A stretch of DNA of 64,000 bases, from the NCBI RefSeq assembly GCF_988243305.1, contig NZ_OZ547136.1; one strand, written 5' to 3'. Shown here one piece after another: positions 1 to 51,490 of the stretch; within the stretch, counting starts at the first letter, position 1, and each line of letters begins with the position of its first letter. Under the pieces are notes generated by a model, which saw only the letters and a program-made list of their open reading frames with translations, searched no databases and was not told where the DNA came from. A program made the position numbers and the translations under genes.

Positions 1-81
1 ATCCGCACCGGCAAAAAAAGCGTGCTGGATTATCTGTTGAAACCCTTTAATAAAGCACAGGAGGCGTTGCGCGAACGATGA
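1..81 (+). CDS. 3' end of upstream CDS, truncated by window start (26 codons plus stop)
   Basis: Open frame from position 1 to TGA at 79-81; the stop overlaps the cueR ATG (ATGA at 78-81). By synteny possibly ybaT, not verified. Confidence 0.4.
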
Positions 82-485
82 ACATTAGCGATGTAGCAAA
101 AATTACCGGCCTGACCAGCAAAGCCATTCGCTTCTATGAAGAGAAGGGGCTGGTGACGCCGCCGATGCGCAGCGAAAATGGTTATCGAACCTACACGCAG
201 CAGCATCTCAACGAACTGACCTTACTGCGCCAGGCGCGCCAGGTGGGCTTTAACCTGGAAGAGAGCGGCGAACTGGTGAATCTGTTTAACGACCCACAGC
301 GTCACAGCGCCGATGTAAAACGGCGCACGCTGGAGAAGGTAGCGGAGATCGAACGGCACATTGAGGAGCTGCAATCCATGCGCGACCAGCTACTGGCGCT
401 GGCGAATGCCTGCCCTGGTGATGACAGCGCCGACTGCCCGATTATCGAAAATCTCTCCGGCTGCTGTCATCATCGGGCGGGGTGA
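78..485 (+). CDS. cueR: MerR-family copper-responsive regulator CueR
   Basis: 135-aa ORF; N-terminal MerR HTH ([25 protein letters not shown]) and C-terminal Cys motif ([10 protein letters not shown]) recognised. Confidence 0.9.
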
Positions 486-488
486 AAA

Positions 489-692
489 TCAGTTAATCCC
501 CGTTTGCACCGAAAGAATATGCTGCAAACTTTCTACCATAATGCGCCCCGACTGAAATAAGCCTTCCTGGATTTCGTTGTTAACATTCACAGCGTGAACC
601 AGGGAGGCTAATAACACCACTTGCAAGAAGGCAAAAATAAACGCACCGATAATCATAATATGCGTCAGGGGGATTTTCCTTTGCTCCTTCAT
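489..692 (-). CDS. hypothetical small membrane protein (67 aa)
   Basis: ORF with one hydrophobic helix (IMIIGAFIFAFLQVVLLASLV); its ATG overlaps the stop of the upstream lipoprotein gene (ATGA at 689-692). Confidence 0.4.
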   Translation of the reverse strand: MKEQRKIPLTHIMIIGAFIFAFLQVVLLASLVHAVNVNNEIQEGLFQSGRIMVESLQHILSVQTGIN

Positions 693-1111
693 TTTAAATA
701 ACCCACAAACTGACCTTCTTTCATTAAGGCGACTTTTCCTGTGTGATGATAAACAATGACGTTATACAGACCTGACTGATAAACAGTGGCATCTTTATTG
801 TCTTCATCAATTGCACATAATGAATCATTGAGATAAGCAAAGTTTTTACTGCTCATTCTAAAGGTCATGCCAAATCCTTTATAAATGGCTTTCTTTGCCG
901 CCTGGGCATGTTGTGCGGCTTCTGCATTTTTAAATGCCTGCGCTTCGGATGCACTTAAAATAGCCGTCTGACGCTGTTGTTCTGCGAGATAACAGGTGTC
1001 ATGGCTGACGCCCTGCGCCTGGCAATCTGCGATGCGGGAAGTGGGTGAACTACAGCCAGCCAGTAATATAACCGCCAGCAGGGAAAACGATTTAATGGAG
1101 CTATTCATCAT
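689..1111 (-). CDS. putative lipoprotein (140 aa), co-transcribed downstream of the trimeric autotransporter
   Basis: Signal peptide with lipobox LLAGC; 53-bp gap to the upstream adhesin gene, same strand. Confidence 0.55.
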   Translation of the reverse strand: MMNSSIKSFSLLAVILLAGCSSPTSRIADCQAQGVSHDTCYLAEQQRQTAILSASEAQAFKNAEAAQHAQAAKKAIYKGFGMTFRMSSKNFAYLNDSLCAIDEDNKDATVYQSGLYNVIVYHHTGKVALMKEGQFVGYLK

Positions 1112-1164
1112 TGTTAACCTTAAATAATGTACGGAAAATTGCGAATAAGAAATTGCTGTTAAAA

Positions 1165-2181
1165 TTAGAACGAATATCCCACGCCGACACCCGCACCGAA
1201 ATCAGATTGTGTATCCGCAGAAATACCTGCTTTAAGTACCGTATGCGTTCCGGCATTAAAAGATGTTCCTACAGACACCGCAGATTCACCGTTGAACGTT
1301 CCCGCTCCCGCTGACACCATCATCAAGTCACCGGTTTTCACCTGTGGTTGTGAGGCGATAGCGATGGCAGATGCAGTTCCCGCATTGGCTTCTTTACGAT
1401 TGTCCTCAACTTCGTTTTTCAGAGAATCGAAATGGTTATTGAGCGTGTTAATTTGTTGGCTGTTATCTGCGACCCGTTTTTGCGTGTTGGTTAACTGTTG
1501 CTGCGTTTGTGCGGAATCTTGTCTCAGACTTTCAATTTGCTCATGTGCCTGGACAGACTTCTGCGCCAGACTTTGCATTTGTTTATCGTATTGAGCCCTT
1601 TCTTTTTGCTGTTGTGCTGCCACATCGGTTGTCAGTGCATTCATTTTCTGCCCTTGTTCCGTGGTAGTGCGCTGATTAGCCTCATTTTGAGCCGCCAGCC
1701 TGGCATTAATCATCTCCTGATAATGCGCGGTATTTTGCGTATCTCCAGTCGCGGCGAGCGTTTTTTGTGTGGCTACGATCTGCGCCTGTTGCTCTGTAAT
1801 TTGCGTTTGCTGGGCATCAGTTACCGCAGACTGTCGGGCGTTGATCATGCTCTGATAACGGGCGGTTGTCTGTACATCACCTGTAGCGGCAACGGTTTTT
1901 TGTCCTGCGTCAGGATCTGTCTGGACAGGGGGAGTCTGAGTGGTATCAGGTGTTTCAGAAGGGATGTAGTGATGTTCAGTCAAATAGGTATACGCAGCGG
2001 GGCTGTTGTCTGTGCGTTCTAAAAAGCGGGTAATCTTCTGCTCAATCTCCGATTGCGACATGCCAGAGTTAATGGCTGAAAGCTCTGTTGCCGCCGCTTC
2101 AATGGTATCACCAGCTAAAACAACAGGGCTGGATGTTGCTGAAATTATGAGTGCCAGTAAAGCTACGTTTACAGTTTTCAT
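1165..2181 (-). CDS. short trimeric autotransporter adhesin-like protein (YadA-type C-terminal anchor, coiled-coil stalk)
   Basis: 338-aa ORF; N-terminal signal peptide; C-terminus ...GESAVSVGTSF...FGAGVGVGYSF resembles the YadA membrane anchor; two tandem 45-aa stalk repeats. Confidence 0.7.
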   Translation of the reverse strand: MKTVNVALLALIISATSSPVVLAGDTIEAAATELSAINSGMSQSEIEQKITRFLERTDNSPAAYTYLTEHHYIPSETPDTTQTPPVQTDPDAGQKTVAATGDVQTTARYQSMINARQSAVTDAQQTQITEQQAQIVATQKTLAATGDTQNTAHYQEMINARLAAQNEANQRTTTEQGQKMNALTTDVAAQQQKERAQYDKQMQSLAQKSVQAHEQIESLRQDSAQTQQQLTNTQKRVADNSQQINTLNNHFDSLKNEVEDNRKEANAGTASAIAIASQPQVKTGDLMMVSAGAGTFNGESAVSVGTSFNAGTHTVLKAGISADTQSDFGAGVGVGYSF

Positions 2182-2214
2182 TCATTTTCTCTTGTTCAAA
2201 ATAAGTCGCATTAA

Positions 2215-2231
2215 TGTTTCTATAAGAAACA
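2215..2231. promoter_or_regulatory. inverted repeat TGTTTCT-ATA-AGAAACA in the adhesin/HTH divergent intergenic region
   Basis: Read directly; 7-bp arms; same half-site recurs at 2344-2362. Confidence 0.35.
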
Positions 2232-2343
2232 AATAATATTGTTTTAAGAAATAAACTGCGTTGCAATTTAATCGAAATCTACGCCGCCATTTGTGTGATG
2301 TAAAGCGCATTTTTGTCTGGTGTAAGCGTGAACACCACCAATA

Positions 2344-2362
2344 AGAAACAAAAAATGTTTCT
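2344..2362. promoter_or_regulatory. everted repeat AGAAACA-AAAAA-TGTTTCT in the same intergenic region
   Basis: Read directly; the 10-mer ATAAGAAACA occurs at both 2222-2231 and 2341-2350. Confidence 0.35.
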
Positions 2363-2547
2363 TATATAAATAAAATCGAAAATCATTTTGTGCTCTTTCA
2401 ATGTAAAAAAGAGTAAAGACTTGTTTTGATAAGCGAAATAAATTCTGTTTCTGGACTAAACGTGAAGCGGTTCCTGATGTGTGCTAAAATGCGTTTCTTT
2501 GATAAATCTCAATTTTTAAGAGGTTTACGCCAGGCAGGAAAATTTAA

Positions 2548-2910
2548 ATGAATGAATTTGAGAAGATTTTTAATGAAATGAATCTGGACCGGGCATTGCT
2601 ACCGATCCTTTTTCGTTCGAACCGGTCAACAGTGTGGAAATATTTAAGTGGCGATAGTACGGCTCCTGCCTCAGCTATGTCACTGATTATGCTGTTGCAG
2701 TTAATCCAGAAACGAAACCCCGATCTGTTAGCCGAATGGTTAACGCTTTCTGATTTCACCATTCCGCCAGAAGTTTACCTGGACCAGCCTGATTACTGGA
2801 AAGGGTGGGTGTATACGCAACACAAGGTCAATAAAAACGTCCTGGAATATCTAAAAAAACATTATCCGGATGAAGACCAAAAAAACATGAATAAAGGTAG
2901 TGACGAGTAA
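2548..2910 (+). CDS. hypothetical small protein (120 aa), possible HTH DNA-binding protein
   Basis: ORF divergent from the adhesin gene across a 366-bp AT-rich spacer; helix-turn-helix-like segment RALLPILFRSNRSTVWKYLSG. Confidence 0.45.
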   Translation: MNEFEKIFNEMNLDRALLPILFRSNRSTVWKYLSGDSTAPASAMSLIMLLQLIQKRNPDLLAEWLTLSDFTIPPEVYLDQPDYWKGWVYTQHKVNKNVLEYLKKHYPDEDQKNMNKGSDE

Positions 2911-2929
2911 TTTGCCAATGCCAGTTAAT

Positions 2930-3094
<165 letters not shown>

Positions 3095-3100
<6 letters not shown>

Positions 3101-3553
3101 AATGACCGCACGGATGATCAGCGTTATCCCTTCTATCGCAATGACTTCAACATGCGTACCTGCACCGAGATCCTCGCTGGCGCTGACAGGCCATGAACTG
3201 TCACCGACGCGCATATGACCGCGCCCGTTGACCAGTGGAGATTCCAGCACAAAACGTCGGCCAATCAGCTGCTGCCCGCGCTGGTTTAAATGACTGTCGC
3301 TGTGCTTTTGTTCGCGCACCCGCCGCGACAACCATTTCCACCACAGCCAGGCGGCGAGCAGCGTCAGGACGGCAAACATCACCCCTTGCCACTCCCAACC
3401 CAGCGGCACCAGCCAGACCACCAGGCCGGTAATCACCGCTGCCACGCCGCTCCAAAGCAGATAACCATTGCCGCCCAACATCTCGGCTGCCAGCAGCAAC
3501 CCGCCGAGACTGAGCCAGAAAATATGTGGATGAACGACCATTAACTCCATCAT
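3095..3553 (-). CDS. ybbJ: NfeD-like inner membrane protein YbbJ
   Basis: 152-aa ORF with N-terminal TM helices; stop-start overlap with qmcA. Confidence 0.85.
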
Positions 3554-4467
3554 GGCTGAGTCCGCTTGTTGGCGCTGTCTTTCACCAGCTCGGCAATCCC
3601 GGCAATCGACCCCATCAGGCTGCTGGCCTCTAATGGCATCATCACTACTTTGCTGTTACTGGACGAACCGATCTGCTGTAACGCTTCGGTGTATTTCTGT
3701 GCGACGAAGTAGTTCACCGCCTGAATATCACCGGAGGCAATGGCTTCAGATACCATTTTGGTGGCGCGGGCTTCTGCTTCGGCAGAACGTTCACGCGCTT
3801 CGGCCTGTAAGAATGCCGATTGACGTTCACCTTCCGCTTTCAGGATTTGCGACTGTTTTTCACCTTCAGCTTTGAGGATTTCCGCCTGACGGATCCCTTC
3901 CGCTTCAAGGATGTAAGCGCGTTTGGTACGTTCCGCTTTCATCTGCGCGTTCATTGAAGAGATAAGCTCTGCCGGTGGGCGCACGTCGCGAATTTCAATA
4001 CGGGTGACTTTAATCCCCCACGGGTTGGTGGCTTCATCGACAATACGCAGCAGGCGTGAGTTGATGCTGTCGCGCTGAGAGAGCATTTCGTCAAGTTCCA
4101 TTGAACCCAGCACGGTACGGATGTTAGTCATGGTCAGGTTGATGATCGCCAGCTCCAGATTGCTGACTTCATAAGCCGCGCGCGGCGCGTCAATCACCTG
4201 AATAAAACAGACTGCGTCGATGGTAACGTTGGCGTTATCTTTCGAGATAACTTCCTGGGAAGGGATATCGAGCACTTGCTCCATCATATTGATCTTGCGA
4301 CCAATGCGATCCATAAACGGCACCACCAGGCTTAGACCTGGCTGTAACGTTTTGGTATAGCGACCAAAGCGTTCTACCGTCCATTGATAGCCCTGCGGCA
4401 CGATTTTGACGCCCGCGCCGACAATGACCAGTGCGACAAAAATGAGAATCGGGATAAAGATAAGCAT
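3550..4467 (-). CDS. qmcA: SPFH/stomatin-family membrane protein QmcA
   Basis: 305-aa ORF; SPFH domain and C-terminal coiled-coil repeats ([29 protein letters not shown]). Confidence 0.9.
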
Positions 4468-4612
4468 CGGAAAAACCTCCTGTTGTACCGTCCATAATCA
4501 GCAAAATTGCTGCTTGATTAAACAAATTATACCTGATTACTGAAAGAGAGTTCCCCCTTATTCCTGGGAAGGATAAACTGTTTTTAGTAAAAATCAGAAA
4601 AAGGGAACAGCG

Positions 4613-5290
4613 ATGCAGGAAAATAGTCCTTTGCTTCAGCTACAAAACGTAGGATATCTGGCGGGTGATGCGAAGATTCTTAATAACATCAATTTTTCGC
4701 TGCGTGCTGGCGAATTTAAGTTAATTACCGGTCCTTCTGGTTGTGGCAAAAGTACGCTGCTAAAAATAGTTGCTTCATTGATCAGCCCAACCAGCGGAAC
4801 GTTACTGTTTGAAGGTGAGGATGTCAGGACACTAAAGCCAGAAATCTACCGCCAGCAAGTGTCTTACTGCGCCCAGACGCCGACGCTGTTTGGCGATACG
4901 GTATACGATAATCTGATCTTTCCCTGGCAGATCCGTAACCAGCAGCCTGACCCGGCCATTTTTCTCGATTTTCTTGAACGCTTCGCTTTGCCGGACAGCA
5001 TTTTGACGAAGAATATCGCCGAGCTATCTGGTGGTGAAAAACAACGCATCTCATTGATTCGTAACCTGCAATTTATGCCGAAGGTTTTATTGCTGGATGA
5101 AATCACCAGTGCGCTGGATGAAAGTAATAAACATAACGTTAATGAGATGATCCATCGTTATGTGCGCGAGCAAAATATTGCTGTGCTGTGGGTGACACAC
5201 GATAAAGACGAAATTAATCATGCGGATAAGGTGATTACACTGCAACCGCATGCCGGAGAAATGCAGGAAGCACGCTATGAACTCGCATAA
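4613..5290 (+). CDS. fetA: ABC transporter ATP-binding protein FetA (YbbL)
   Basis: Walker A GPSGCGKST, ABC signature LSGGEKQR, Walker B LLLDE. Confidence 0.9.
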   Translation: MQENSPLLQLQNVGYLAGDAKILNNINFSLRAGEFKLITGPSGCGKSTLLKIVASLISPTSGTLLFEGEDVRTLKPEIYRQQVSYCAQTPTLFGDTVYDNLIFPWQIRNQQPDPAIFLDFLERFALPDSILTKNIAELSGGEKQRISLIRNLQFMPKVLLLDEITSALDESNKHNVNEMIHRYVREQNIAVLWVTHDKDEINHADKVITLQPHAGEMQEARYELA

Positions 5291-6056
5291 TATTACTAAC
5301 GAATCATTGGCACTGGCATTAATGCTGGTGGTGGTGGCAATCTTAATTAGCCATAAAGAAAAACTGGCGCTGGAGAAAGATATTCTCTGGAGCGTCGGGC
5401 GCGCGATAATTCAGCTGATTATTGTCGGCTATGTGCTGAAGTATATTTTCAGCGTGGATGATGCCAGCCTGACATTATTGATGGTGTTATTTATCTGCTT
5501 TAATGCGGCGTGGAACGCGCAAAAACGCAGTAAATATATTGCTAAAGCTTTTATCTCATCGTTTATTGCCATTACGGTTGGTGCGGGAATTACCCTGGCG
5601 GTGCTGATTCTCTCCGGGTCGATTGAATTTATCCCGATGCAGGTGATCCCTATCGCCGGGATGATAGCCGGTAACGCCATGGTAGCGGTGGGGTTGTGTT
5701 ACAACAATTTAGGGCAACGGGTGATTAGCGAACAGCAACAGATTCAGGAGAAACTGAGTCTTGGCGCTACGCCGAAACAGGCTTCAGCGATATTGATTCG
5801 CGACAGTATTCGCGCGGCTTTAATTCCGACGGTCGATTCAGCAAAAACGGTTGGCTTAGTGAGTTTACCAGGAATGATGTCCGGGCTGATATTTGCCGGG
5901 ATTGATCCGGTGAAGGCGATTAAATATCAGATTATGGTGACCTTTATGCTGCTCTCAACCGCCAGCCTGTCGACCATTATTGCCTGCTATTTGACCTATC
6001 GTAAGTTTTACAATTCGCGCCACCAGTTGGTGGTGACGCAATTGAAGAAGAAATAA
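5277..6056 (+). CDS. fetB: ABC transporter permease FetB (YbbM)
   Basis: Polytopic membrane ORF; start chosen at MNSHNITNE (259 aa) rather than the upstream ATG at 5250. Confidence 0.85.
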   Translation: MNSHNITNESLALALMLVVVAILISHKEKLALEKDILWSVGRAIIQLIIVGYVLKYIFSVDDASLTLLMVLFICFNAAWNAQKRSKYIAKAFISSFIAITVGAGITLAVLILSGSIEFIPMQVIPIAGMIAGNAMVAVGLCYNNLGQRVISEQQQIQEKLSLGATPKQASAILIRDSIRAALIPTVDSAKTVGLVSLPGMMSGLIFAGIDPVKAIKYQIMVTFMLLSTASLSTIIACYLTYRKFYNSRHQLVVTQLKKK

Positions 6057-6062
6057 TGCAAT

Positions 6063-6090
6063 GCCGGATGCGCAGCATCGCATCCGGCGT
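6063..6090. terminator. hairpin between convergent fetB and ybbN (REP-like stem GCCGGATGCG...CGCATCCGGC)
   Basis: Inverted repeat read directly. Confidence 0.4.
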
Positions 6091-6118
6091 TGTGGTTCAT
6101 GTGCCGATCAACGGAAAC

Positions 6119-7015
<897 letters not shown>

Positions 7016-7033
7016 TTAAGTGCGCGCTTCAAC

Positions 7034-7843
7034 TCACCCCTGCAATATTTTGTCCATCACGCGCCCCGGCAGCAGGCGCTTAAGCACCATTACTGCCCAG
7101 GTCACCAGCGTTACCGGATAGCGCATCTTCGGTTTCTCGCTAATAAAAGCATGGCGTACTTTGTCGACCACCGCTTCCGGTCCCAACGTAAAGCGGGCGG
7201 CGATGCCAGGATTTTCGACTGGTTTATCACTTTGCGTCTGGTTGACGTTGTCGGTGAAGCGAGTACGAATGGGACCGGGTTCGATCAGGCTAACTTTAAC
7301 TCCGCTGTGGCGCAGCTCCATGCGCAGCGCATCCGACCACGCCTCCAGCGCATATTTACTGGCCGCGTAAGCGCCACGACCCGGCGTGGAGATTAATCCC
7401 ATCACCGATGAGGTCATCACAATACGTCCTTCACCGTGCGGTAACATCGCGGGTAACAGGCGCATGGTGAGCTGGTGTGCGCCGAAAAAGTTGGCGGAAA
7501 ACTGCTGTTCCATCTGCGCACGGCTGATGGTGGAAAGGGGGCCATACATGCCGAATCCGGCATTGTTAAAGATCCCATACAGACAATTATCGGTCAGGGC
7601 GATCACTTCGTCGGCTGCGCGATCAACACTTTCTGGCGAATCCAGATCGATCAACACGCCGGTAAATCCCATGCTGTTCATGCGCTCAACATCATCCGCT
7701 TTCCGGCAACCTGCCAGCACATGAAAACCCTGGCGTTTTAATTCGAGCGCGCTTTCCAGGCCAATTCCACTGGAACATCCGGTAATTAAGACCGATTTTT
7801 GCATAACTTTACCTGTCAGGATCTCCGTTGCTTTATGAGTCAT
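7034..7843 (-). CDS. ybbO: short-chain dehydrogenase/reductase YbbO
   Basis: SDR motifs TGCSSGIG and YAASKYAL. Confidence 0.9.
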   Translation of the reverse strand: MTHKATEILTGKVMQKSVLITGCSSGIGLESALELKRQGFHVLAGCRKADDVERMNSMGFTGVLIDLDSPESVDRAADEVIALTDNCLYGIFNNAGFGMYGPLSTISRAQMEQQFSANFFGAHQLTMRLLPAMLPHGEGRIVMTSSVMGLISTPGRGAYAASKYALEAWSDALRMELRHSGVKVSLIEPGPIRTRFTDNVNQTQSDKPVENPGIAARFTLGPEAVVDKVRHAFISEKPKMRYPVTLVTWAVMVLKRLLPGRVMDKILQG

Positions 7844-8459
7844 GATTTACTAAAGGCTGCAACTGCTTCGCCATCCAGTCGGCAATAAACGGCTGGGCGT
7901 CGCGGTTGGGATGAATACCGTCATCCTGCATCCATTGTGGTTTGAGGTAGACCTCTTCCATAAAAAAGGGCAGCAGCGGAACATCAAACTCTTTGGCGAG
8001 TTTGGGGTAAATGGCGCTAAAGGCTTCATTATAACGGCGACCATAGTTTGCAGGCAGACGTATTTGCATTAACAATGGTTCAGCGTTGGCGGCTTTGACA
8101 TCCTGCAAAATCTGGCGCAGCGTTTGCTCGGTTTGTTGTGGCTGAAAACCACGCAAACCGTCATTGCCGCCCAGTTCTACCAGCACCCAGCGCGGCTGAT
8201 GCTGTTTCAGCAGAGCCGGAAGGCGCGCCAGCCCTTGTTGCGAGGTGTCGCCGCTGATGCTGGCATTGACTACCGACGTTTTATTCTGCCACTTATCATT
8301 CAACAAGGCAGGCCAGGCCGCGCTGGCAGACATTCGATACCCGGCGCTCAGGCTATCACCCAGAATCAATAACGTGTCCGCTGCGGCGGCACGGAAGGTT
8401 AACAGGACCAGGAACAGGAAGGGCAAATGCCAGCGGAAAACATTGTTGAAGTTCATCAT
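7833..8459 (-). CDS. tesA: acyl-CoA thioesterase I / lysophospholipase L1 (SGNH hydrolase) TesA
   Basis: GDSLSAGY catalytic motif; start at MMNFNNVF (208 aa). Confidence 0.9.
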   Translation of the reverse strand: MMNFNNVFRWHLPFLFLVLLTFRAAAADTLLILGDSLSAGYRMSASAAWPALLNDKWQNKTSVVNASISGDTSQQGLARLPALLKQHQPRWVLVELGGNDGLRGFQPQQTEQTLRQILQDVKAANAEPLLMQIRLPANYGRRYNEAFSAIYPKLAKEFDVPLLPFFMEEVYLKPQWMQDDGIHPNRDAQPFIADWMAKQLQPLVNHDS

Positions 8460-9113
8460 CTTAAGAAGTCCGTCGGTCAGGGGGAGCATGAACTCTCCAT
8501 CCTCACCGGAGTTGAGCTGGTTGTCAAACGTGGCGAGACCATCGCACTGGTGGGCGAGTCGGGATCGGGTAAGTCAACCTTGCTGGCGATCCTCGCCGGG
8601 CTGGATGACGGCAGCAGTGGCGAAGTGAGTCTGGTGGGACAACCGCTACATAATATGGACGAAGAAGCGCGGGCAAAGTTGCGCGCGAAGCACGTCGGCT
8701 TTGTTTTTCAGTCATTTATGTTAATTCCTACCCTTAACGCGCTGGAAAACGTCGAGCTTCCGGCGCTGCTGCGCGGTGAGAGTAGCGCGGAAAGTCGTAA
8801 CGGAGCGAAAGCGTTGCTCGAACAGTTAGGGCTGGGTAAACGTCTTGATCATCTTCCGGCACAGCTTTCCGGCGGCGAACAGCAACGAGTGGCGCTGGCG
8901 CGAGCTTTTAATGGTCGACCTGATGTGCTGTTTGCCGACGAACCCACCGGCAACCTTGACCGCCAGACGGGCGATAAAATTGCCGACCTGCTGTTTTCCC
9001 TCAACCGTGAACATGGCACCACGTTGATTATGGTGACCCACGACCTGCAACTGGCGGCACGCTGCGACCGCTGCTTACGGCTGATGAACGGGCAATTGCA
9101 GGAGGAAGCATGA
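8427..9113 (+). CDS. ybbA: ABC transporter ATP-binding protein YbbA
   Basis: Walker A GESGSGKST, signature LSGGEQQR. Confidence 0.9.
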   Translation: MPAENIVEVHHLKKSVGQGEHELSILTGVELVVKRGETIALVGESGSGKSTLLAILAGLDDGSSGEVSLVGQPLHNMDEEARAKLRAKHVGFVFQSFMLIPTLNALENVELPALLRGESSAESRNGAKALLEQLGLGKRLDHLPAQLSGGEQQRVALARAFNGRPDVLFADEPTGNLDRQTGDKIADLLFSLNREHGTTLIMVTHDLQLAARCDRCLRLMNGQLQEEA

Positions 9114-11524
9114 TTGCACGTTGGTTCTGGCGCGAATGGCGTTCGCCGTCGCTATTAATTGTCTGGCTGGCGCTAAGCCTGGCGGTGGCCTGCGTGCTGG
9201 CGCTGGGCAATATCAGCGATCGCATGGAGAAGGGCTTAAGCCAACAAAGCCGGGAGTTTATGGCGGGCGATCGGGCGTTGCGCAGTTCGCGCGAAGTGCC
9301 GCAAGCGTGGCTGGAGGAAGCGCAAAAGCGCGGCCTGAAAGTCGGCAAGCAGCTGACTTTCGCCACCATGACATTTGCAGGCGACACACCGCAGCTGGCG
9401 AACGTCAAAGCGGTGGATGATATCTACCCGATGTATGGCGATCTGCAAACTAATCCCCCTGGCCTGAAACCGCAGGCGGGCAGCGTATTGCTGGCCCCAC
9501 GCCTGATGGCACTGCTTAACCTGAAAACAGGCGACACCATCGACGTGGGCGATGCCACCTTGCGGATTGCCGGAGAAGTGATTCAGGAACCGGATTCCGG
9601 TTTTAACCCCTTCCAGATGGCTCCGCGTCTGATGATGAATCTGGCGGATGTCGATAAAACCGGAGCCGTGCAGCCGGGGAGTCGGGTCACCTGGCGCTAT
9701 AAATTCGGCGGCAACGAGAACCAGCTCGACAGCTATGAGAAATGGTTGTTACCTCAGCTTAAACCCGAACAACGCTGGTACGGTCTGGAACAGGACGAAG
9801 GCGCGCTGGGGCGCTCGATGGAACGCTCGCAACAGTTCCTGCTGCTTTCGGCGCTTCTGACCTTGCTGCTGGCAGTGGCAGCGGTGGCGGTGGCGATGAA
9901 TCATTACTGTCGCAGTCGCTACGATCTGGTGGCGATCCTCAAAACGCTGGGGGCAGGGCGAGCGCAACTGCGTAAGCTAATCGTCGGTCAGTGGTTGATG
10001 GTGCTGGCGCTTTCAGCCGTTACCGGCGGGGCGATAGGCCTGTTGTTCGAAAACGTGTTGATGGTGCTGCTCAAGCCCGTTCTGCCTGCTGCACTACCGC
10101 CAGCCAGCCTCTGGCCGTGGCTGTGGGCGCTGGGCACCATGACAGTCATCTCGCTGCTGGTGGGGCTACGACCGTACCGCTTGTTGCTGGCAACGCAGCC
10201 TTTACGCGTATTGCGTAATGATGTGGTCGCGAACGTCTGGCCGCTGAAGTTTTATCTGCCGATTGTCAGTGTGGTGGTTGTGCTGCTGCTCGCCGGATTA
10301 ATGGGTGGCAGTATGCTGCTCTGGGCGGTGCTGGCGGGCGCGGTAGTGCTGGCTTTGCTGTGCGGTGTGCTGGGCTGGATGCTGCTGAATGTACTTCGCC
10401 GCATGACGCTGAAATCGCTACCTCTGCGCCTGGCGGTTAGCCGCCTGTTACGTCAGCCGTGGTCAACGTTAAGCCAGCTTTCGGCATTTTCGCTCTCCTT
10501 TATGCTGCTGGCGCTATTGCTGGTATTGCGTGGCGATCTGCTCGACCGCTGGCAACAGCAGCTACCGCCAGAAAGCCCGAACTACTTTTTAATCAACATC
10601 GCCACAGAACAGGTTACGCCGCTAAAAACGTTCCTCGCGGAACATCAGATAGTCCCGGAATCATTTTATCCGGTGGTGCGGGCGCGACTGACGGCGATTA
10701 ACGACAAGCCGACAGAAGGCAATGAAGATGAGGCGCTTAACCGCGAACTCAATCTTACCTGGCAAAATACGCGGCCCGATCATAATCCGATTGTCGCCGG
10801 TAACTGGCCGCCAAAAGCCGATGAAGTGTCGATGGAAGAGGGGCTGGCGAAACGCTTAAACGTTGCCCTCGGCGATACCGTGACTTTTATGGGCGATACC
10901 CAGGAGTTCCGCGCTAAAGTGACCAGCCTGCGCAAAGTGGACTGGGAAAGTCTGCGGCCTAATTTCTATTTTATTTTCCCGGAAGGGGCATTAGACGGGC
11001 AACCGCAGAGCAGGCTTACCAGTTTCCGCTGGGAGAATGGCAACGGCATGTTGACGCAACTCAACCGCCAGTTCCCGACCATTAGCCTGTTAGACATTGG
11101 CGCGATTTTAAAACAGGTCGGCCAGGTGCTGGAGCAGGTAAGTCGGGCGCTGGAGGTGATGGTGGTGCTGGTCACCGCCTGCGGTATGTTGCTGTTGCTG
11201 GCACAGGTGCAGGTGGGAATGCGTCAGCGCCATCAGGAGCTGGTGGTGTGGCGCACACTCGGTGCGGGGAAAAAACTGCTGCGCACCACGTTGTGGTGTG
11301 AGTTCGCCATGCTCGGGTTTGTTTCTGGCCTGGTGGCCGCAATTGGTGCGGAAACGGCGCTGGCAGTGTTGCAGGCGAAAGTGTTTGATTTCCCGTGGGA
11401 GCCAGACTGGCGATTGTGGATTGTGCTGCCGTGCAGCGGTGCACTGCTGCTGTCGCTTTTCGGCGGCTGGCTGGGCGCGCGGCTGGTTAAGGGTAAGGCG
11501 CTGTTCAGGCAGTTTGCGGGGTGA
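9110..11524 (+). CDS. ybbP: FtsX-like ABC transporter permease YbbP
   Basis: 804-aa polytopic membrane ORF, stop-start overlap with ybbA. Confidence 0.9.
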   Translation: MIARWFWREWRSPSLLIVWLALSLAVACVLALGNISDRMEKGLSQQSREFMAGDRALRSSREVPQAWLEEAQKRGLKVGKQLTFATMTFAGDTPQLANVKAVDDIYPMYGDLQTNPPGLKPQAGSVLLAPRLMALLNLKTGDTIDVGDATLRIAGEVIQEPDSGFNPFQMAPRLMMNLADVDKTGAVQPGSRVTWRYKFGGNENQLDSYEKWLLPQLKPEQRWYGLEQDEGALGRSMERSQQFLLLSALLTLLLAVAAVAVAMNHYCRSRYDLVAILKTLGAGRAQLRKLIVGQWLMVLALSAVTGGAIGLLFENVLMVLLKPVLPAALPPASLWPWLWALGTMTVISLLVGLRPYRLLLATQPLRVLRNDVVANVWPLKFYLPIVSVVVVLLLAGLMGGSMLLWAVLAGAVVLALLCGVLGWMLLNVLRRMTLKSLPLRLAVSRLLRQPWSTLSQLSAFSLSFMLLALLLVLRGDLLDRWQQQLPPESPNYFLINIATEQVTPLKTFLAEHQIVPESFYPVVRARLTAINDKPTEGNEDEALNRELNLTWQNTRPDHNPIVAGNWPPKADEVSMEEGLAKRLNVALGDTVTFMGDTQEFRAKVTSLRKVDWESLRPNFYFIFPEGALDGQPQSRLTSFRWENGNGMLTQLNRQFPTISLLDIGAILKQVGQVLEQVSRALEVMVVLVTACGMLLLLAQVQVGMRQRHQELVVWRTLGAGKKLLRTTLWCEFAMLGFVSGLVAAIGAETALAVLQAKVFDFPWEPDWRLWIVLPCSGALLLSLFGGWLGARLVKGKALFRQFAG

Positions 11525-11531
11525 TGTGATA

Positions 11532-11566
11532 AAGCCGTTTATTTCTACCTGGTAGATAAACGGCTT
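11532..11566 (+). terminator. hairpin downstream of ybbP (AAGCCGTTTAT...ATAAACGGCTT), left edge of the AT-rich island
   Basis: Inverted repeat read directly; weak T tract. Confidence 0.4.
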
Positions 11567-11692
11567 CATTATTAGTGCATCACGTAATTAAAAAATTGTT
11601 ATGCCCAAACATATAATTAATATACATTGCCAAATGAGTTGTTTATTAAGTTTATATTATATAATTAAAATCTATGGAATGGGTATAATCAT

Positions 11693-13696
11693 ATGGGTGA
11701 CATTATATATTTACGCATTACAGGGGAGCAACAAGGGGATATTTCTGCAGGATGCGGGACGCAAGCCTCTGTCGGGAATCGGTATCAACAGGGACATGAG
11801 GATGAAATATTTGTTTTTAGTTTTCATGGAGGAGTAAGTAACACAGGATTTGGCATTAATCATCAAACGATACAATTTTGTAAAATTCTCGATAAAAGCT
11901 CACCGCTGCTGATGAATTGCATTAATAATAACGAACGATGCCGTTTTGAGTTTTATTTTTATCGTATTAATAAATATGGAAAATGGGAAAGGTATTATTA
12001 TATTGAAGTCCGTGGTGCCACGTTAACTCAGAATCAGATTATAATAAAAGAAAATGAACTTGACTATCAATATATAACAATACACTACGAATATATCTAC
12101 TGTAAGCATCTTACAGCCAATACAGAATTTAGTTATTTACTCACACCTGAAAATTATAATCGCCTTTTCCCACCGACGCTCTTACCTGTTGAGGAAAAAC
12201 CAGAAATACCGCCTGAACGAGAAATTATCCTCACCATTGGTGTATTCTTTGATGGCACAGGAAACAATTTAACCAATACGAATTTACGTATGAGTTTTTT
12301 CCAACCAGAAACCTATGGTCTGGATGTCCAGGATTTGGCCTCGTTTAATAAACAATGTATGAGCAAGCAGGGTAAAACGGGATCCGGAGTACAGAGCTAT
12401 TTGAATTACTATACGAATATTCATTGGTTGAATGAGTTGTATCATAAAGATTCAGAAATAAATGCGGGGTCAGTAAAAATTCAACGTGAAATTTATATTG
12501 AAGGAATAGGGACTGAAAATAATAAAGCAGACTCTCTGATAGGAATGGGGTTAGGAAATAATGATACAGGGGTAATTGCCAAAACTGACCGTGCGATATC
12601 ACTGCTCCGTGAAAAACTGACGGAGATTGTTATTTCTTTAAAAGAGAATAAATTAGTAATTAAGTGTCTACAGTTTGACGTATTTGGCTTTAGTCGTGGG
12701 GCAGCAGCCGCACGGCACTTTACTAATCGCGTATTTGAGTGTGATCCCGTACTGATTAAAACCATTACGACGGCATTTCAGTCAGTTGAATATTTAGGTA
12801 AACCTTCCGGGGAAGTGCAATTTTTAGGTATTTTTGACACAGTTGCAGCCATCGGAGGGCTGATGGATGGTTTTGACCCTCATGATGGTAATAACTTTCC
12901 GGTAAAAGTGAAGTTACCGCCAGGTGTGGCCAAACATGTATTCCAGCTCACAGCAATGAACGAATGTCGCTATAACTTTTGCCTCAACAGCATAAAGGAA
13001 AGCTGGCCAGAATTAAGTTTCCCTGGATCTCATGCTGATATTGGTGGCGGCTATGACCCACTGGAAGATGAGTACCTGTTTTTAAGTCGCCCGGCGATTG
13101 CAACGGTACTGGGAAATGTGCCGGTGGAAGCGACAAGCGCTTACCAAAAAGCAGCACAGCAGGCAGAGTTATTGTGGCGCTATTCGACGCTGGCTCCGAT
13201 TCTGCCTTCTGGTGTCCTAAAAATTGAATCCAATATTGATGAAATAGCGTCGCCTGACCACTTAGGTAATGTGAGAAAACGGGTCGCTGCAGCGGTGACA
13301 TTTCGCAGAACGATCACCAATGACTGGTCAAAGATTGCGTTAAGAGTAATGTATGAAGTCGCTAAAGAGGCAGGGGTAGTATTTGATGCCATTTCTGTTG
13401 CTGATAAGGAATTAAAAGTTCCCAGTCATTTAAAGGTAATATGTGAAAAAGCAATTTCTCAGGGTAAAGCCGTTCTCTTGTGTACAGCGCCGATACCTTT
13501 TTCTGATGATGAGCTTAAAACCATTGGAAAATATATACACTGCTCTTCCAACTGGAATACCGTCGATTATCGATTAAAAAATAAGGTGTCTGCTGAAGTA
13601 TCAGCGTTTAAGACGTTTAGTTTTGTTAATCGGCCGGATGAAAATTGGACCAGAACTATATACGATATGCAAGGGAATAAACAAAATGGAATTTAA
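11693..13696 (+). CDS. Hcp-domain / DUF2235 (Tle1-like phospholipase) fusion protein, putative T6SS-delivered effector
   Basis: 667-aa ORF. Residues 1-~150 align with Hcp (IYLRITGEQQGDISAGCG...GHEDE...SPLLMNCI); FFDGTGN at residues 185-191; GFSRG (GxSxG) with Ser334; FDTVAAIG and HADIGGGY motifs; AT-rich relative to flanks. Confidence 0.8.
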   Translation: MGDIIYLRITGEQQGDISAGCGTQASVGNRYQQGHEDEIFVFSFHGGVSNTGFGINHQTIQFCKILDKSSPLLMNCINNNERCRFEFYFYRINKYGKWERYYYIEVRGATLTQNQIIIKENELDYQYITIHYEYIYCKHLTANTEFSYLLTPENYNRLFPPTLLPVEEKPEIPPEREIILTIGVFFDGTGNNLTNTNLRMSFFQPETYGLDVQDLASFNKQCMSKQGKTGSGVQSYLNYYTNIHWLNELYHKDSEINAGSVKIQREIYIEGIGTENNKADSLIGMGLGNNDTGVIAKTDRAISLLREKLTEIVISLKENKLVIKCLQFDVFGFSRGAAAARHFTNRVFECDPVLIKTITTAFQSVEYLGKPSGEVQFLGIFDTVAAIGGLMDGFDPHDGNNFPVKVKLPPGVAKHVFQLTAMNECRYNFCLNSIKESWPELSFPGSHADIGGGYDPLEDEYLFLSRPAIATVLGNVPVEATSAYQKAAQQAELLWRYSTLAPILPSGVLKIESNIDEIASPDHLGNVRKRVAAAVTFRRTITNDWSKIALRVMYEVAKEAGVVFDAISVADKELKVPSHLKVICEKAISQGKAVLLCTAPIPFSDDELKTIGKYIHCSSNWNTVDYRLKNKVSAEVSAFKTFSFVNRPDENWTRTIYDMQGNKQNGI

Positions 13697-14345
13697 TATA
13701 AAATTACTGTTTGTTATTACGTCTATGGTTCTTAACTTTAACGCAGCAGCGAAAGAAAAAATATCGTTGCTTGCACCCTATGATGAGTGGTATTTCAATT
13801 TTTTCTACCCTGATTCCCTACCAGCAAAAGTTACCTATGTGGAATTATTAGATACCGATGGCATCTATTATCAGTTCAGAACGCTGGCCAGTACTAATGC
13901 CAGTCCAGGAAGTGTTGGACAATGGAGCGAGAAAGTATCAGGGATGTCGTCAGTTTTTAATAAAGCCAAAAACCCACCAATGTCTATCCATTTTTGCTGG
14001 GATTCAGTGATTGATAAAAAAGTGTATGAAACCTGGATAACGCTGGCGGGAGACGTCTGGAAATTGATGCTCACACCTTATTCACCACCAGGCGATGGCA
14101 GTGAAAAATATTATCTACAGTATCTGTTAATCGGACTGGCTCCGGAAGGAAAAGTACGGGTATGGCTTGATAAACGTGACAAACCCAATATTCGCCTGAC
14201 GGATAAGCAGATTCTGATAGAAACGTTTTCAGGTGAAAAAATGGAAATGTGTAAAGGAATTTCCCGGCATGATTTTTCTCTTGGAGACGATGAATATGTT
14301 CTTGAGTTTATCAAAGATAAAAAATATCCCTATGGTAACTGGTAA
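13686..14345 (+). CDS. putative periplasmic immunity protein, copy 1 (219 aa, signal peptide)
   Basis: Start overlaps effector stop by 11 bp; cleavable signal peptide without lipobox; paralogue of next gene. Confidence 0.6.
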   Translation: MEFNIKLLFVITSMVLNFNAAAKEKISLLAPYDEWYFNFFYPDSLPAKVTYVELLDTDGIYYQFRTLASTNASPGSVGQWSEKVSGMSSVFNKAKNPPMSIHFCWDSVIDKKVYETWITLAGDVWKLMLTPYSPPGDGSEKYYLQYLLIGLAPEGKVRVWLDKRDKPNIRLTDKQILIETFSGEKMEMCKGISRHDFSLGDDEYVLEFIKDKKYPYGNW

Positions 14346-14351
14346 GTAACA

Positions 14352-15020
14352 ATGAAAATAATAGCTAAAATAATTTATAGATTAACCATTGCGTTAATGA
14401 TAGCCGGATCAGTCCAGACAGCAGCGAAAGAAAAAATATCGTTGCTTGCACCCTATGATGAGTGGTATTTCCTTTTTTTCTACCCTAATGCGCTACCGGC
14501 ACGAGTTACCTATGTAGAACTATTGGACACTGATGGTATCTATTATCAGTTCAGAACGCTGGATGCTACCGCTCCGAGTTCCACAACTATTGATCAATGG
14601 AGAGATAATCTTCGGGTTGGGGTGTTATCATTCAATAAAGCTAAAAATCCCCCTATGTCTATCCATTTCTGCTGGGATTCAGTGATTGATAAAAAAGTGT
14701 ATGAAACCTGGATCACGCTGGCGGGAAAAGTCTGGAAATTGATGCTAACACCTTATTCACCACCAGGTGGTGGCAGTGAAAAGTATTATCTGCGGTATCT
14801 GTTAATCGGGCTGGCTCCGGAAGGGAAAATAGGAGTGTGGCTGGAGAAACCTGATAAACCCAATATTCGCCTGACCGATAAGCAGATTCTGATAGAAACG
14901 GTTTCAGGTGAAAAAATGGAAATGTGTAAAGGCCGAAGTGTCTATAAAAATGGGTATTCTTACCCGGAAAGTACAAAAAACTTTATCAAAGATAAAAAAT
15001 ATCCCTATGGCAACTGGTAG
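14352..15020 (+). CDS. putative periplasmic immunity protein, copy 2 (222 aa, signal peptide)
   Basis: Tandem paralogue of 13686-14345 with long identical peptide blocks (KEKISLLAPYDEWYF; KAKNPPMSIHFCWDSVIDKKVYETWITLAG) and divergent middle and C-terminus. Confidence 0.6.
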   Translation: MKIIAKIIYRLTIALMIAGSVQTAAKEKISLLAPYDEWYFLFFYPNALPARVTYVELLDTDGIYYQFRTLDATAPSSTTIDQWRDNLRVGVLSFNKAKNPPMSIHFCWDSVIDKKVYETWITLAGKVWKLMLTPYSPPGGGSEKYYLRYLLIGLAPEGKIGVWLEKPDKPNIRLTDKQILIETVSGEKMEMCKGRSVYKNGYSYPESTKNFIKDKKYPYGNW

Positions 15021-48659: not shown

Positions 48660-49292
48660 TTATATTAATTCATATAATTTGGCATAGTCGATAAGCTCTA
48701 CAATTGAATGCAAACCTAGCTTGCCATAAATATTAGATTTATGCGCACTAACTGTTTTATTGCTAAGTAATAACTTATCGGCAATTTCTTTATTAGATAA
48801 TCCGCTAACCAGATAACGTAATATGGTTACTTCACGATTAGATAGCACAGTGACCGTTGAACTATTCGTACTACATTTATTGCTTTTTATATAGTTGAGC
48901 GTTTCGCTGGGAAAAAAAGTGTATCCGGAGAGGATCATCTGAACGGCATGAAAAATATCATTCTGATCATTGCATTTACTGACAAAACCGTTAGCACCAG
49001 CTTGTATCGCTCTGCCAGCATAAAAGCATTCTGATTTCGATGATAAAAATAATACTTTCACTGTACTCTGAATTTGTTTGATCCTTTTCAGGAAGGTAAA
49101 ACCGTCTGTACCGGGCAAGTCTATATCCATAATGATTAAATCAACAGGACGGGTTCGGAGATAATCGATGGTTATGCGGTAATCATCCGTTTTCAGGACA
49201 ATCTGCAATTCACTGTTTTTTTGCAACAGAACTTCAATAGACATTCTGATGATAGGATGAGTATCCATAATGATCACCGACGTTGGTTTCAT
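48660..49292 (-). CDS. fimZ: LuxR-family response regulator FimZ
   Basis: Receiver domain plus LuxR HTH; start at MKPTSVIIMD (210 aa). Confidence 0.85.
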   Translation of the reverse strand: MKPTSVIIMDTHPIIRMSIEVLLQKNSELQIVLKTDDYRITIDYLRTRPVDLIIMDIDLPGTDGFTFLKRIKQIQSTVKVLFLSSKSECFYAGRAIQAGANGFVSKCNDQNDIFHAVQMILSGYTFFPSETLNYIKSNKCSTNSSTVTVLSNREVTILRYLVSGLSNKEIADKLLLSNKTVSAHKSNIYGKLGLHSIVELIDYAKLYELI

Positions 49293-49533
49293 AGTTACCA
49301 GTCTCATTGGATCGGACAATTTTCCGTTAGGGCGGTAAATTGTACTTGATACATGAAAATACGGGTTTTCTTGATTCAGACGCGCAGCGGTGTGCGTTTG
49401 TTTGCCGCTATAACGAAATAAATCAGAAAATCAGACGCGGTCGTTCACTTGTTCAGCAACCAGATCAAAAGCCATTGACTCAGCAAGGGTTGACCGTATA
49501 ATTCACGCGATTACACCGCATTGCGGTATCAAC

Positions 49534-49610
49534 GCGCCCTTAGCTCAGTTGGATAGAGCAACGACCTTCTAAGTCGTGGGCCGCAGGTTCGAATCCTGCA
49601 GGGCGCGCCA
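49534..49610 (+). tRNA. argU: tRNA-Arg (anticodon UCU)
   Basis: 77-nt cloverleaf GCGCCCTTAGCTCAGTTGGATAGAGC...GGTTCGAATCCTGCAGGGCGCGCCA with CU-UCU-AA anticodon loop. Confidence 0.95.
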
Positions 49611-49655
49611 TTTCTTCTTCATTTATCCCCGTCTTATCCGTTTCCGCTTTGCCCT

Positions 49656-50417
49656 TCACCACATCACTTTTTGTCGCTGTTTGGCGAGATAATTCAACGG
49701 TGTCAGGCCGTAAAACGCCTTAAAAACAGAGATAAAGTACGACGTGCTGCTATAGCCACATAATTGCGCTACCTGAGTGATATTTTTGTTATCCATCAAT
49801 AACATCTGTACGGCGTAACGCATACGACACTCTGTGACAATCTGGCTATAGCTGGTATTTTCGTTTTTTAATTTCTTTTTGAGCAGGCTGGGGCTTAAGC
49901 ATAGCGAACTGGCGACAATTCGCAGATTCCAGTAATGCTGAATATCGCTTTGAATAATGCGGCAGACGCTGTCGCGGACGCTGCTGCGTAAGATATACAT
50001 CAGTAGGGCAATAAACCGCGATTGCTCAAGAAAGTTAGACAATACGGTAAAAAGCAATGCGCGCGTCAACTCCGCTTCGCAGGGTTTGCTGGGTTGCTGC
50101 TTGCTGTGGTTGGCGGCTAGCCGGAACACTTCCGGTGTACGGCTATGACAAGCGATAACCGGGGTAGCCAGCCGCGACCAGGGCTTTACGCAGGTTAAGT
50201 TCTTATTTAAAAACAACAGATAATCGTTGATGATGTTGCGGTTGATGTGGGTGATTAATACGTGATTTAACGTTGAGAGTTCAATGACGTTATTGTTGCA
50301 CGCGAAGGCGGCCAGGTAATTTTTCGGAAGGGTAAACGTGGCATGGTTATTGACGCTTACCTCTACCTCTTTTTCGGTCAGGATCACCACGCAAGGTTCA
50401 CTGCTGCTCAATTGCAT
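49656..50417 (-). CDS. envY: AraC-family transcriptional regulator EnvY
   Basis: 253-aa ORF with C-terminal AraC HTH. Confidence 0.8.
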   Translation of the reverse strand: MQLSSSEPCVVILTEKEVEVSVNNHATFTLPKNYLAAFACNNNVIELSTLNHVLITHINRNIINDYLLFLNKNLTCVKPWSRLATPVIACHSRTPEVFRLAANHSKQQPSKPCEAELTRALLFTVLSNFLEQSRFIALLMYILRSSVRDSVCRIIQSDIQHYWNLRIVASSLCLSPSLLKKKLKNENTSYSQIVTECRMRYAVQMLLMDNKNITQVAQLCGYSSTSYFISVFKAFYGLTPLNYLAKQRQKVMW

Positions 50418-50599: not shown

Positions 50600-51490
50600 T
50601 TAATACTCGAGAATGCCGTGCGCGACGGGCAAATAGCGCAGAGAGAAATAGAGCGTGTCTTTACCGCAAGAGGAACGTTTCGCTAACAGCGAGGCAATTT
50701 CTGCGTCCGGTTTCGGTTTCGCTGTAAAGGTTTTGCCTTTGCCGGCGACAAACAGTTCATAAACAATGCCGCTTGCTGGGGCGGAGCTTTGGCAATCGGC
50801 GCTGGCCTGTAGATAACGTTCACGCTGTTCAGCGGTCAGTTTATCCACGCCGCTGCCATCCTGTACCCAGACATTAACGCCGGTTGCTTTAACGTGTTCC
50901 AGCAGTTGGCGATAGCCATCGGGCGACATGTTTCCGGCGAAAAAACTACTGATATAAACCGGTTTTGCTGAAACATCGCTAATCAACCGCTGCGCGTTGT
51001 TTAACCATGTTAGCAAAGGCTGACGGGCGGCTTCGCTGCGCCAGTTCAGGTCGTCAATTTCCGCGCTGATGTACCAGCCATCCGGCGTTACGCCAGGTAC
51101 GGCGCTCCATAATCTGGCTTGCTGGAGATCGGCAGCCAGCAGGCGGTTAAGATAGCTTTCCAGCGCTGCAGACGACTGTTTCTGGTGCATAAAAAATTCC
51201 GGATCGGCATTCAGCCCGACAATCAGCTTCAGGCCAGCCTGTTGCGCAGCTGCTGCACGCTTAAACAATAACGCGCGCTGTTCTGGCTGGGTGAATGCAT
51301 CGCCGTAACGAGTCCATTGCAAAACCAGGGTATCGAAGCCTTGCAAACGTAACTGACTCATCAGCCCCTGCCACTGGGTATCGGTAACCTGACTATCACG
51401 GTTTTGTGGTTGCCAGATAATACCTTTCATCGCAAAGGAAAAAGGGCTGACCAAAAGCAGTGTCAGCAATACGAAAATGAACTTACGCAT
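50600..51490 (-). CDS. ybcH: YbcH (secreted protein of unknown function)
   Basis: 296-aa ORF with signal peptide; 1-bp gap to nfrA start. Confidence 0.8.
   Translation of the reverse strand: MRKFIFVLLTLLLVSPFSFAMKGIIWQPQNRDSQVTDTQWQGLMSQLRLQGFDTLVLQWTRYGDAFTQPEQRALLFKRAAAAQQAGLKLIVGLNADPEFFMHQKQSSAALESYLNRLLAADLQQARLWSAVPGVTPDGWYISAEIDDLNWRSEAARQPLLTWLNNAQRLISDVSAKPVYISSFFAGNMSPDGYRQLLEHVKATGVNVWVQDGSGVDKLTAEQRERYLQASADCQSSAPASGIVYELFVAGKGKTFTAKPKPDAEIASLLAKRSSCGKDTLYFSLRYLPVAHGILEY

Follow-up and report, generated by a model that had tools for sequence, protein, structure and literature searches.

In Escherichia coli K-12 MG1655, the tRNA gene argU and the regulator gene envY are separated by about 21.3 kb, in the order argU-intD-...-appY-ompT-partial argU copy (attR)-envY. 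The prophage DLP12 that fills this interval comprises intD, IS3, emrE, rusA, quuD, a porin gene disrupted by IS5 (nmpC::IS5), essD/rrrD/rzpD, bor, nohD, tail-fibre fragments, appY and ompT. In the 64-kb stretch of DNA analysed here, to which we refer in its full length as the window, the same two genes are only 45 bp apart. This raises the question of whether the window holds an intact and free phage attachment site or the degraded remains of a prophage, and of what the state of the site implies for the presence of ompT in the source strain. The original prediction had called the site empty and OmpT absent from it, on the premise that in K-12 DLP12 lies between argU and envY with ompT at its distal edge. 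For MG1655 this premise is correct, since both DLP12 and ompT are found between the two genes and not elsewhere relative to envY.

Taken as a whole, the window is an ordinary segment of the E. coli chromosome. It starts with cueR, a small island with a YadA-family adhesin gene and ybbJ-qmcA-fetAB-cnoX-ybbO-tesA-ybbAP, continues with an Hcp-effector cassette, mnmH, the allantoin/glyoxylate cluster and purKE-lpxH-ppiB-cysS-ybcIJ-folD, and ends with sfmACDHF-fimZ-argU-envY-ybcH-nfrA-nfrB, cusSR and cusCFBA. The island between cueR and ybbJ (489-2910) is an accessory segment containing the gene of a 338-aa YadA-family autotransporter adhesin (1165-2181, minus strand) and three short hypothetical genes. 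It occurs in a subset of E. coli genomes, 843 of 5426 covering at least 80% of window positions 1-14400. Between ybbP and mnmH (11693-15020), a position presumably held by the rhsD element in K-12, the window carries a gene whose 667-aa product combines Hcp (T6SS_HCP) with Tle1-like lipase domains and which RefSeq lists as an Hcp family type VI secretion system effector. This gene is followed by two DUF2931 genes (13686-14345 and 14352-15020), which have a 0.5-kb repeat of about 86% identity in common.

The locus of interest is anchored by the sole tRNA gene of the 64-kb window, called by ARAGORN as tRNA-Arg with anticodon TCT at 49534..49610 on the plus strand and recovered at the same position by the Rfam tRNA model RF00005 with 72.1 bits, compared to a gathering score of 29. 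All 77 nt are identical to argU of K-12 MG1655, and the gene is placed directly downstream of fimZ, which is the synteny also seen in K-12. Judged by cloverleaf and anticodon as well as by identity and synteny, the window argU is an intact tRNA-Arg(UCU) gene. The only long ORF downstream of it encodes 253 aa with one substitution relative to K-12 EnvY (K111R) and takes its name, envY, from the RefSeq annotation of the closest complete genome. Its stop codon occupies 49656-49658, so that the gap of 49611..49655 measures exactly 45 bp, and the predicted tRNA end at 49610 and stop codon at 49656 were reproduced by ARAGORN, the ORF and the sequence itself. The site consists of the following features, for which positions in the colinear region of strain Z1323HEC0462 (L002) were converted to window coordinates by adding 41333:

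48660..49292, minus strand: fimZ, a response-regulator gene, left chromosomal flank of the site (ORF and RefSeq annotation of the colinear region in strain Z1323HEC0462)
49475..49502, plus strand: sigma-70 promoter-like site upstream of argU, TTGACT, 16 nt, TATAAT (11 of 12 consensus matches)
49534..49610, plus strand: argU, tRNA-Arg(UCU) (ARAGORN, Rfam RF00005, K-12 identity)
49566..49612, no strand: attB in our reading, a single 47-bp core made up of the 3' 45 nt of argU and 2 nt (TT) (comparison with K-12 attL and attR)
49611..49655, no strand: pyrimidine-rich spacer of 45 bp from argU to the envY stop codon (sequence and K-12 comparison)
49656..50417, minus strand: envY, an AraC-family regulator gene convergent with argU, right chromosomal flank (ORF and RefSeq homologue annotation)
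50600..51490, minus strand: ybcH (DUF4434), the next chromosomal gene, in K-12 order (ORF, RefSeq and K-12 comparison)

From its consensus match, the promoter-like site at 49475..49502 may serve as the promoter of argU. The plus strand of the spacer is composed of 22 T, 16 C, 4 G and 3 A, and a consensus scan found no terminator-like hairpin in these 45 bp on either strand; in the empty configuration, the sequence shows no evident means of termination for the argU and the convergent envY transcripts.

We delimited the attachment core by a three-way comparison, in which the window was anchored on the tRNA against the left K-12 junction and on the envY stop codon against the right one. Identity with K-12 attL stops after 49612, identity with K-12 attR, read leftwards from envY, stops at 49566, and the two runs overlap in a 47-bp core at 49566-49612. 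The sequence of this core is the same in both K-12 copies and in the attR copy of Escherichia phage PhiR29_1. A search permitting up to 8 mismatches returned one copy of the core in the window, compared to two in the K-12 locus (attL and attR), so that the 3' end of argU, set against the DLP12 attachment sequence, contains a single intact core. The length obtained here agrees with the published 47-nt duplication, as attR of DLP12 has been described as 47 bp long and argU-like (PMC6379469) and PP_SE11-1 of strain SE11 as a 50.4-kb lambda-like prophage at argU with a 47-nt duplication (PMC2608844, Table 2). The 43 bp from the core to envY (49613-49655) correspond to the K-12 spacer between attR and envY with 2 mismatches and are, by this comparison, ordinary chromosomal sequence as found to the right of attR in K-12. 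Window and K-12 locus share the same argU, the same core and the same flanks (sfm-fimZ on the left, envY-ybcH-nfrA on the right). However, about 21 kb of decayed prophage separate two core copies in K-12, while the window has one copy and nothing between the flanks, which are directly joined, colinear and 98.4% and 98.9% identical to the outer flanks of K-12.

Neither in this gap nor elsewhere in the window did we detect DLP12-type sequence. A blastn search of the 64-kb window with the whole DLP12 interior, using 11-base words, gave no match at E ≤ 1e-3, in tblastn the best value for OmpT and IntD was E = 2.9, and AppY matched only the AraC-type domain of envY. The integrase gene that lies directly downstream of argU in the DLP12-type occupied state is absent, with only 45 bp remaining to envY, and blastn and tblastn likewise found no phage genes and no ompT/appY cargo between duplicated cores in the window. 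The prediction that no integrase, prophage or ompT lies between argU and envY is therefore confirmed, and can be extended to the rest of the 64 kb. The single core, the joined flanks and the absence of prophage DNA also support the predicted empty configuration, with OmpT lacking at the locus. A degraded prophage remnant at argU, considered as a candidate, could be ruled out based on the single core copy, the spacer colinear with K-12 and the lack of phage-derived bases.

The occupied counterpart of this site is represented by PhiR29_1 (PV340556.1), a lambdoid phage of 46.3 kb from host ECOR13. Of the 47-bp core, its record has the final 27 nt at the start and a full copy at the far end, where about 50 nt of chromosomal sequence follow and extend into the end of envY. 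The integrase gene, whose product shares 99.2% identity with IntD, precedes complete lambdoid modules for replication, lysis, head and tail. At the right end, tail-fibre genes are joined by genes for a methyltransferase, a hydrolase, an omptin with 99.1% identity to OmpT, an Xre-type regulator and an acetyltransferase, which places ompT next to attR. From this anatomy it follows that an IntD-type lambdoid phage carries ompT as cargo at the end close to attR and that DLP12, inside which ompT is located (PMC5723341), is a decayed copy of such a phage. PhiR29_1 in ECOR13 and PP_SE11-1 in SE11 have the same 47-bp core as the window, but they stand for the occupied state and possess complete modules for head, tail and lysis; the window constitutes the matching empty target.

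Taking together the 45-bp gap, the core that is present once here and twice in K-12, the absence of prophage DNA and the many genomes with the same junction, we are highly confident that 49566-49612 represents an intact, unoccupied attB for lambdoid phages with a tyrosine integrase of the DLP12 IntD type, where recombination would insert the phage between argU and envY, with ompT as phage cargo. Its identical core suggests that the site would be competent for integrase-mediated recombination. We propose a model in which the final 45 nt of argU and 2 further nt are duplicated on IntD-type phages, and in which recombination within this 47-bp identity would insert the phage between argU and envY, restoring argU in full at attL, the left junction, and leaving an incomplete copy of the tRNA gene at attR, the right junction, with ompT as cargo at the right end beside it. 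Such rebuilding of the target gene at attL is a well-established property of tRNA-targeting tyrosine integrases. The lineage of the source strain would either never have acquired a phage of this type or have lost it by recombination between the two core copies, which would restore the same sequence, and the outcome is a chromosome with the order sfm-fimZ-argU-envY-ybcH-nfrA and no ompT at the locus.

The junction seen in the window is widespread. Contiguity of argU and envY, defined as at least 80% of a 527-bp probe matching in one piece, was found in 2532 of 5426 complete E. coli genomes (47%). Carriers include 55989, SMS-3-5, O157:H7 and Z1323HEC0462, which are 99-100% identical to the window over the 527 bp and show no difference at the junction. 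K-12-type ompT is present in 3095 of the 5426. We additionally drew a spread sample of 60 genomes, taken evenly down the ranking obtained with a chimeric probe of junction region and ompT. In this sample 26 genomes were empty and matched the full 2.5-kb junction part of the probe, and one further genome with empty junction (H193) showed a match limited to the first 1.3 kb of the probe. The K-12-like arrangement, in which ompT adjoins envY, accounted for 18 of the 60; in the full search, 1579 genomes reached at least 80% coverage of the chimeric probe, and ompT next to envY is found in about 29% of complete genomes. Roughly a fifth of the sample (11 of 60) displayed a short remnant with the order folD-argU-truncated integrase-tail-fibre fragment-methyltransferase-ompT-ybcH, which lacks the sfm operon, fimZ, envY and the attR copy of the core, as exemplified by strain 4/4 (NZ_CP023826.1 583708-593342). 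This short ompT remnant can be considered a third common architecture of the argU locus, and a few deletion types, such as that of BL21, were also sampled. The empty argU-envY junction is one of the two major alleles of the locus in E. coli and as such common and ordinary, and the presence/absence polymorphism of prophages at this tRNA attachment site is already known, well documented and not new in kind.

While OmpT is lacking at the locus, its absence from the whole genome is a separate matter. In 24 of the 26 sampled full-length empty-junction genomes no ompT match was found anywhere on the chromosome, while the other two, both O157:H7, contained a second probe match. O157:H7 TR01 carries an ompT 100% identical to the K-12 gene beside minCDE, neighboured by a methyltransferase and tail-fibre remnant, a hydrolase, a regulator and an acetyltransferase that are all shared with PhiR29_1. 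O157:H7 thus differs from the window in that its argU junction is empty and yet ompT resides in a prophage remnant next to minCDE, which means that an empty argU is no proof of an ompT-less genome. For the nearest genomes, a chimeric probe of 6 kb of the window and ompT was used, and the 60 best matches were ranked by best match. The two top-ranking entries at the locus are short ompT-bearing remnants at the site, and all 58 empty-junction genomes among these 60, including SMS-3-5 and Z1323HEC0462, have one matching place each and hence no K-12-type ompT on the chromosome, where the megablast scope is ompT of about 85% identity or more, counted per record, and leaves room for plasmid omptins and divergent paralogues. 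Since none of these 58 chromosomes carries K-12-type ompT, its absence is likely for the source strain as well, which, as judged from its nearest empty-junction relatives and one 64-kb window, is probably without a chromosomal K-12-type ompT.

An ompT-negative state, viewed as the absence of an antivirulence gene, is described for Shigella/EIEC (Nakata et al. 1993, in the form in which it is cited in PMC5723341). The window resembles these lineages in that its argU region lacks both ompT and DLP12, but differs from them in that no IS elements interrupt it over the compared part (14.4-64 kb), that the sfm genes (from 44.5 kb) and envY-nfrA are full-length ORFs and that its genes are arranged colinearly with those of ordinary E. 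coli. No feature of the window points to Shigella or EIEC, although 64 kb give no basis for judging pathotype.

Of the complete E. coli genomes in the collection, none exceeds 98.8% identity to the window over 25 kb. Compared to the best of them, Z1323HEC0462 (window 14400-64000), similarity is mosaic, with 0-1 differences per kb at 49-56 kb, 1-10 at 43-49 kb and several blocks of 20-50 differences per kb, for example at 23-24 kb (allW) and 57-61 kb (cus genes). The window is therefore nearly identical to this genome at 43-56 kb and 1-5% different on either side, a pattern which indicates recombination. Exact-protein look-ups additionally yielded draft assemblies near-identical over 7-8 kb, with 1 mismatch (GCA_047575255.1 and GCA_012474415.1) or 2 mismatches (GCA_974490465.1 and GCA_051153335.1). 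A 23-mer scan of the GTDB species representatives with the core plus right arm returned as its sole match an E. coli-like contig that shows the occupied (attR) arrangement and belongs to a Collinsella metagenome-assembled genome, and none from other Escherichia species. One end of this contig (JAIJJM010000316.1, 'MAG: Collinsella sp.', 3563 bp) matches E. coli attR-envY DNA at 98.7% identity over about 155 bp, and the contig looks like Escherichia contamination.

Whether the site was never occupied or became vacant by excision is a matter of inference, as precise excision and lack of occupancy would give the same sequence. It may once have held a DLP12-like prophage carrying ompT that later disappeared, either cut out precisely by Int/Xis or deleted through homologous recombination of the 47-bp attL and attR repeats, with loss of ompT being secondary, as proposed for Shigella/EIEC. 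Such a history would be in agreement with the existence of full-length prophages with intact integrase at argU, and for ompT-negative lineages the literature leaves open whether DLP12 was never hosted or was excised (PMC5723341). Moreover, the occupied H20 and the empty H1 are both 100% identical to the envY-side flank of the window, so that occupancy does not track the flanking haplotype, which suggests that prophages came and went repeatedly or that recombination crossed the site. However, precise loss is scarless and hence leaves no positive evidence, and the 58 of 58 empty-junction genomes without chromosomal ompT among the 60 best matches fit a long-standing absence equally well. We therefore regard former occupancy followed by loss as conceivable but rather unlikely.

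The mosaic similarity to the best match likewise suggests that occupancy changes repeatedly or moves by recombination, and an argU-envY segment from an empty-site donor could have replaced earlier content of the locus by homologous recombination, the window differing from Z1323HEC0462 by 0-10 positions per kb at 43-56 kb as opposed to 20-50 per kb in neighbouring segments. Yet a mosaic attests to recombination somewhere in the history of either strain and not to changed occupancy, and the outcome would be the same intact attB; import of the empty allele thus seems improbable to us. A recent secondary loss of an ompT-carrying prophage, whether the prophage was excised precisely or an empty allele was imported within the recombinant block at 43-56 kb, is similarly doubtful. 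An assembly artefact, in which a prophage between the 47-bp repeats was dropped, was considered since repeats can cause assembly errors. We found no support for it and consider its probability negligible, since a 47-bp repeat does not make assemblers drop 20-50 kb of unique DNA and the identical junction is present in 2532 finished genomes. The intact, unoccupied attB, which no observation contradicts, remains our preferred reading.

The overall importance of the finding is small, since the window represents one of two common alleles at a well-described integration site. If a recent secondary loss had nevertheless taken place and was driven by selection, it would constitute a parallel to the ompT-negative state of Shigella/EIEC. 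For the strain itself, the probable lack of chromosomal OmpT bears on antimicrobial-peptide cleavage, virulence typing and the stability of recombinant proteins, and the locus would provide a free attachment site for lambdoid phages of the IntD type.
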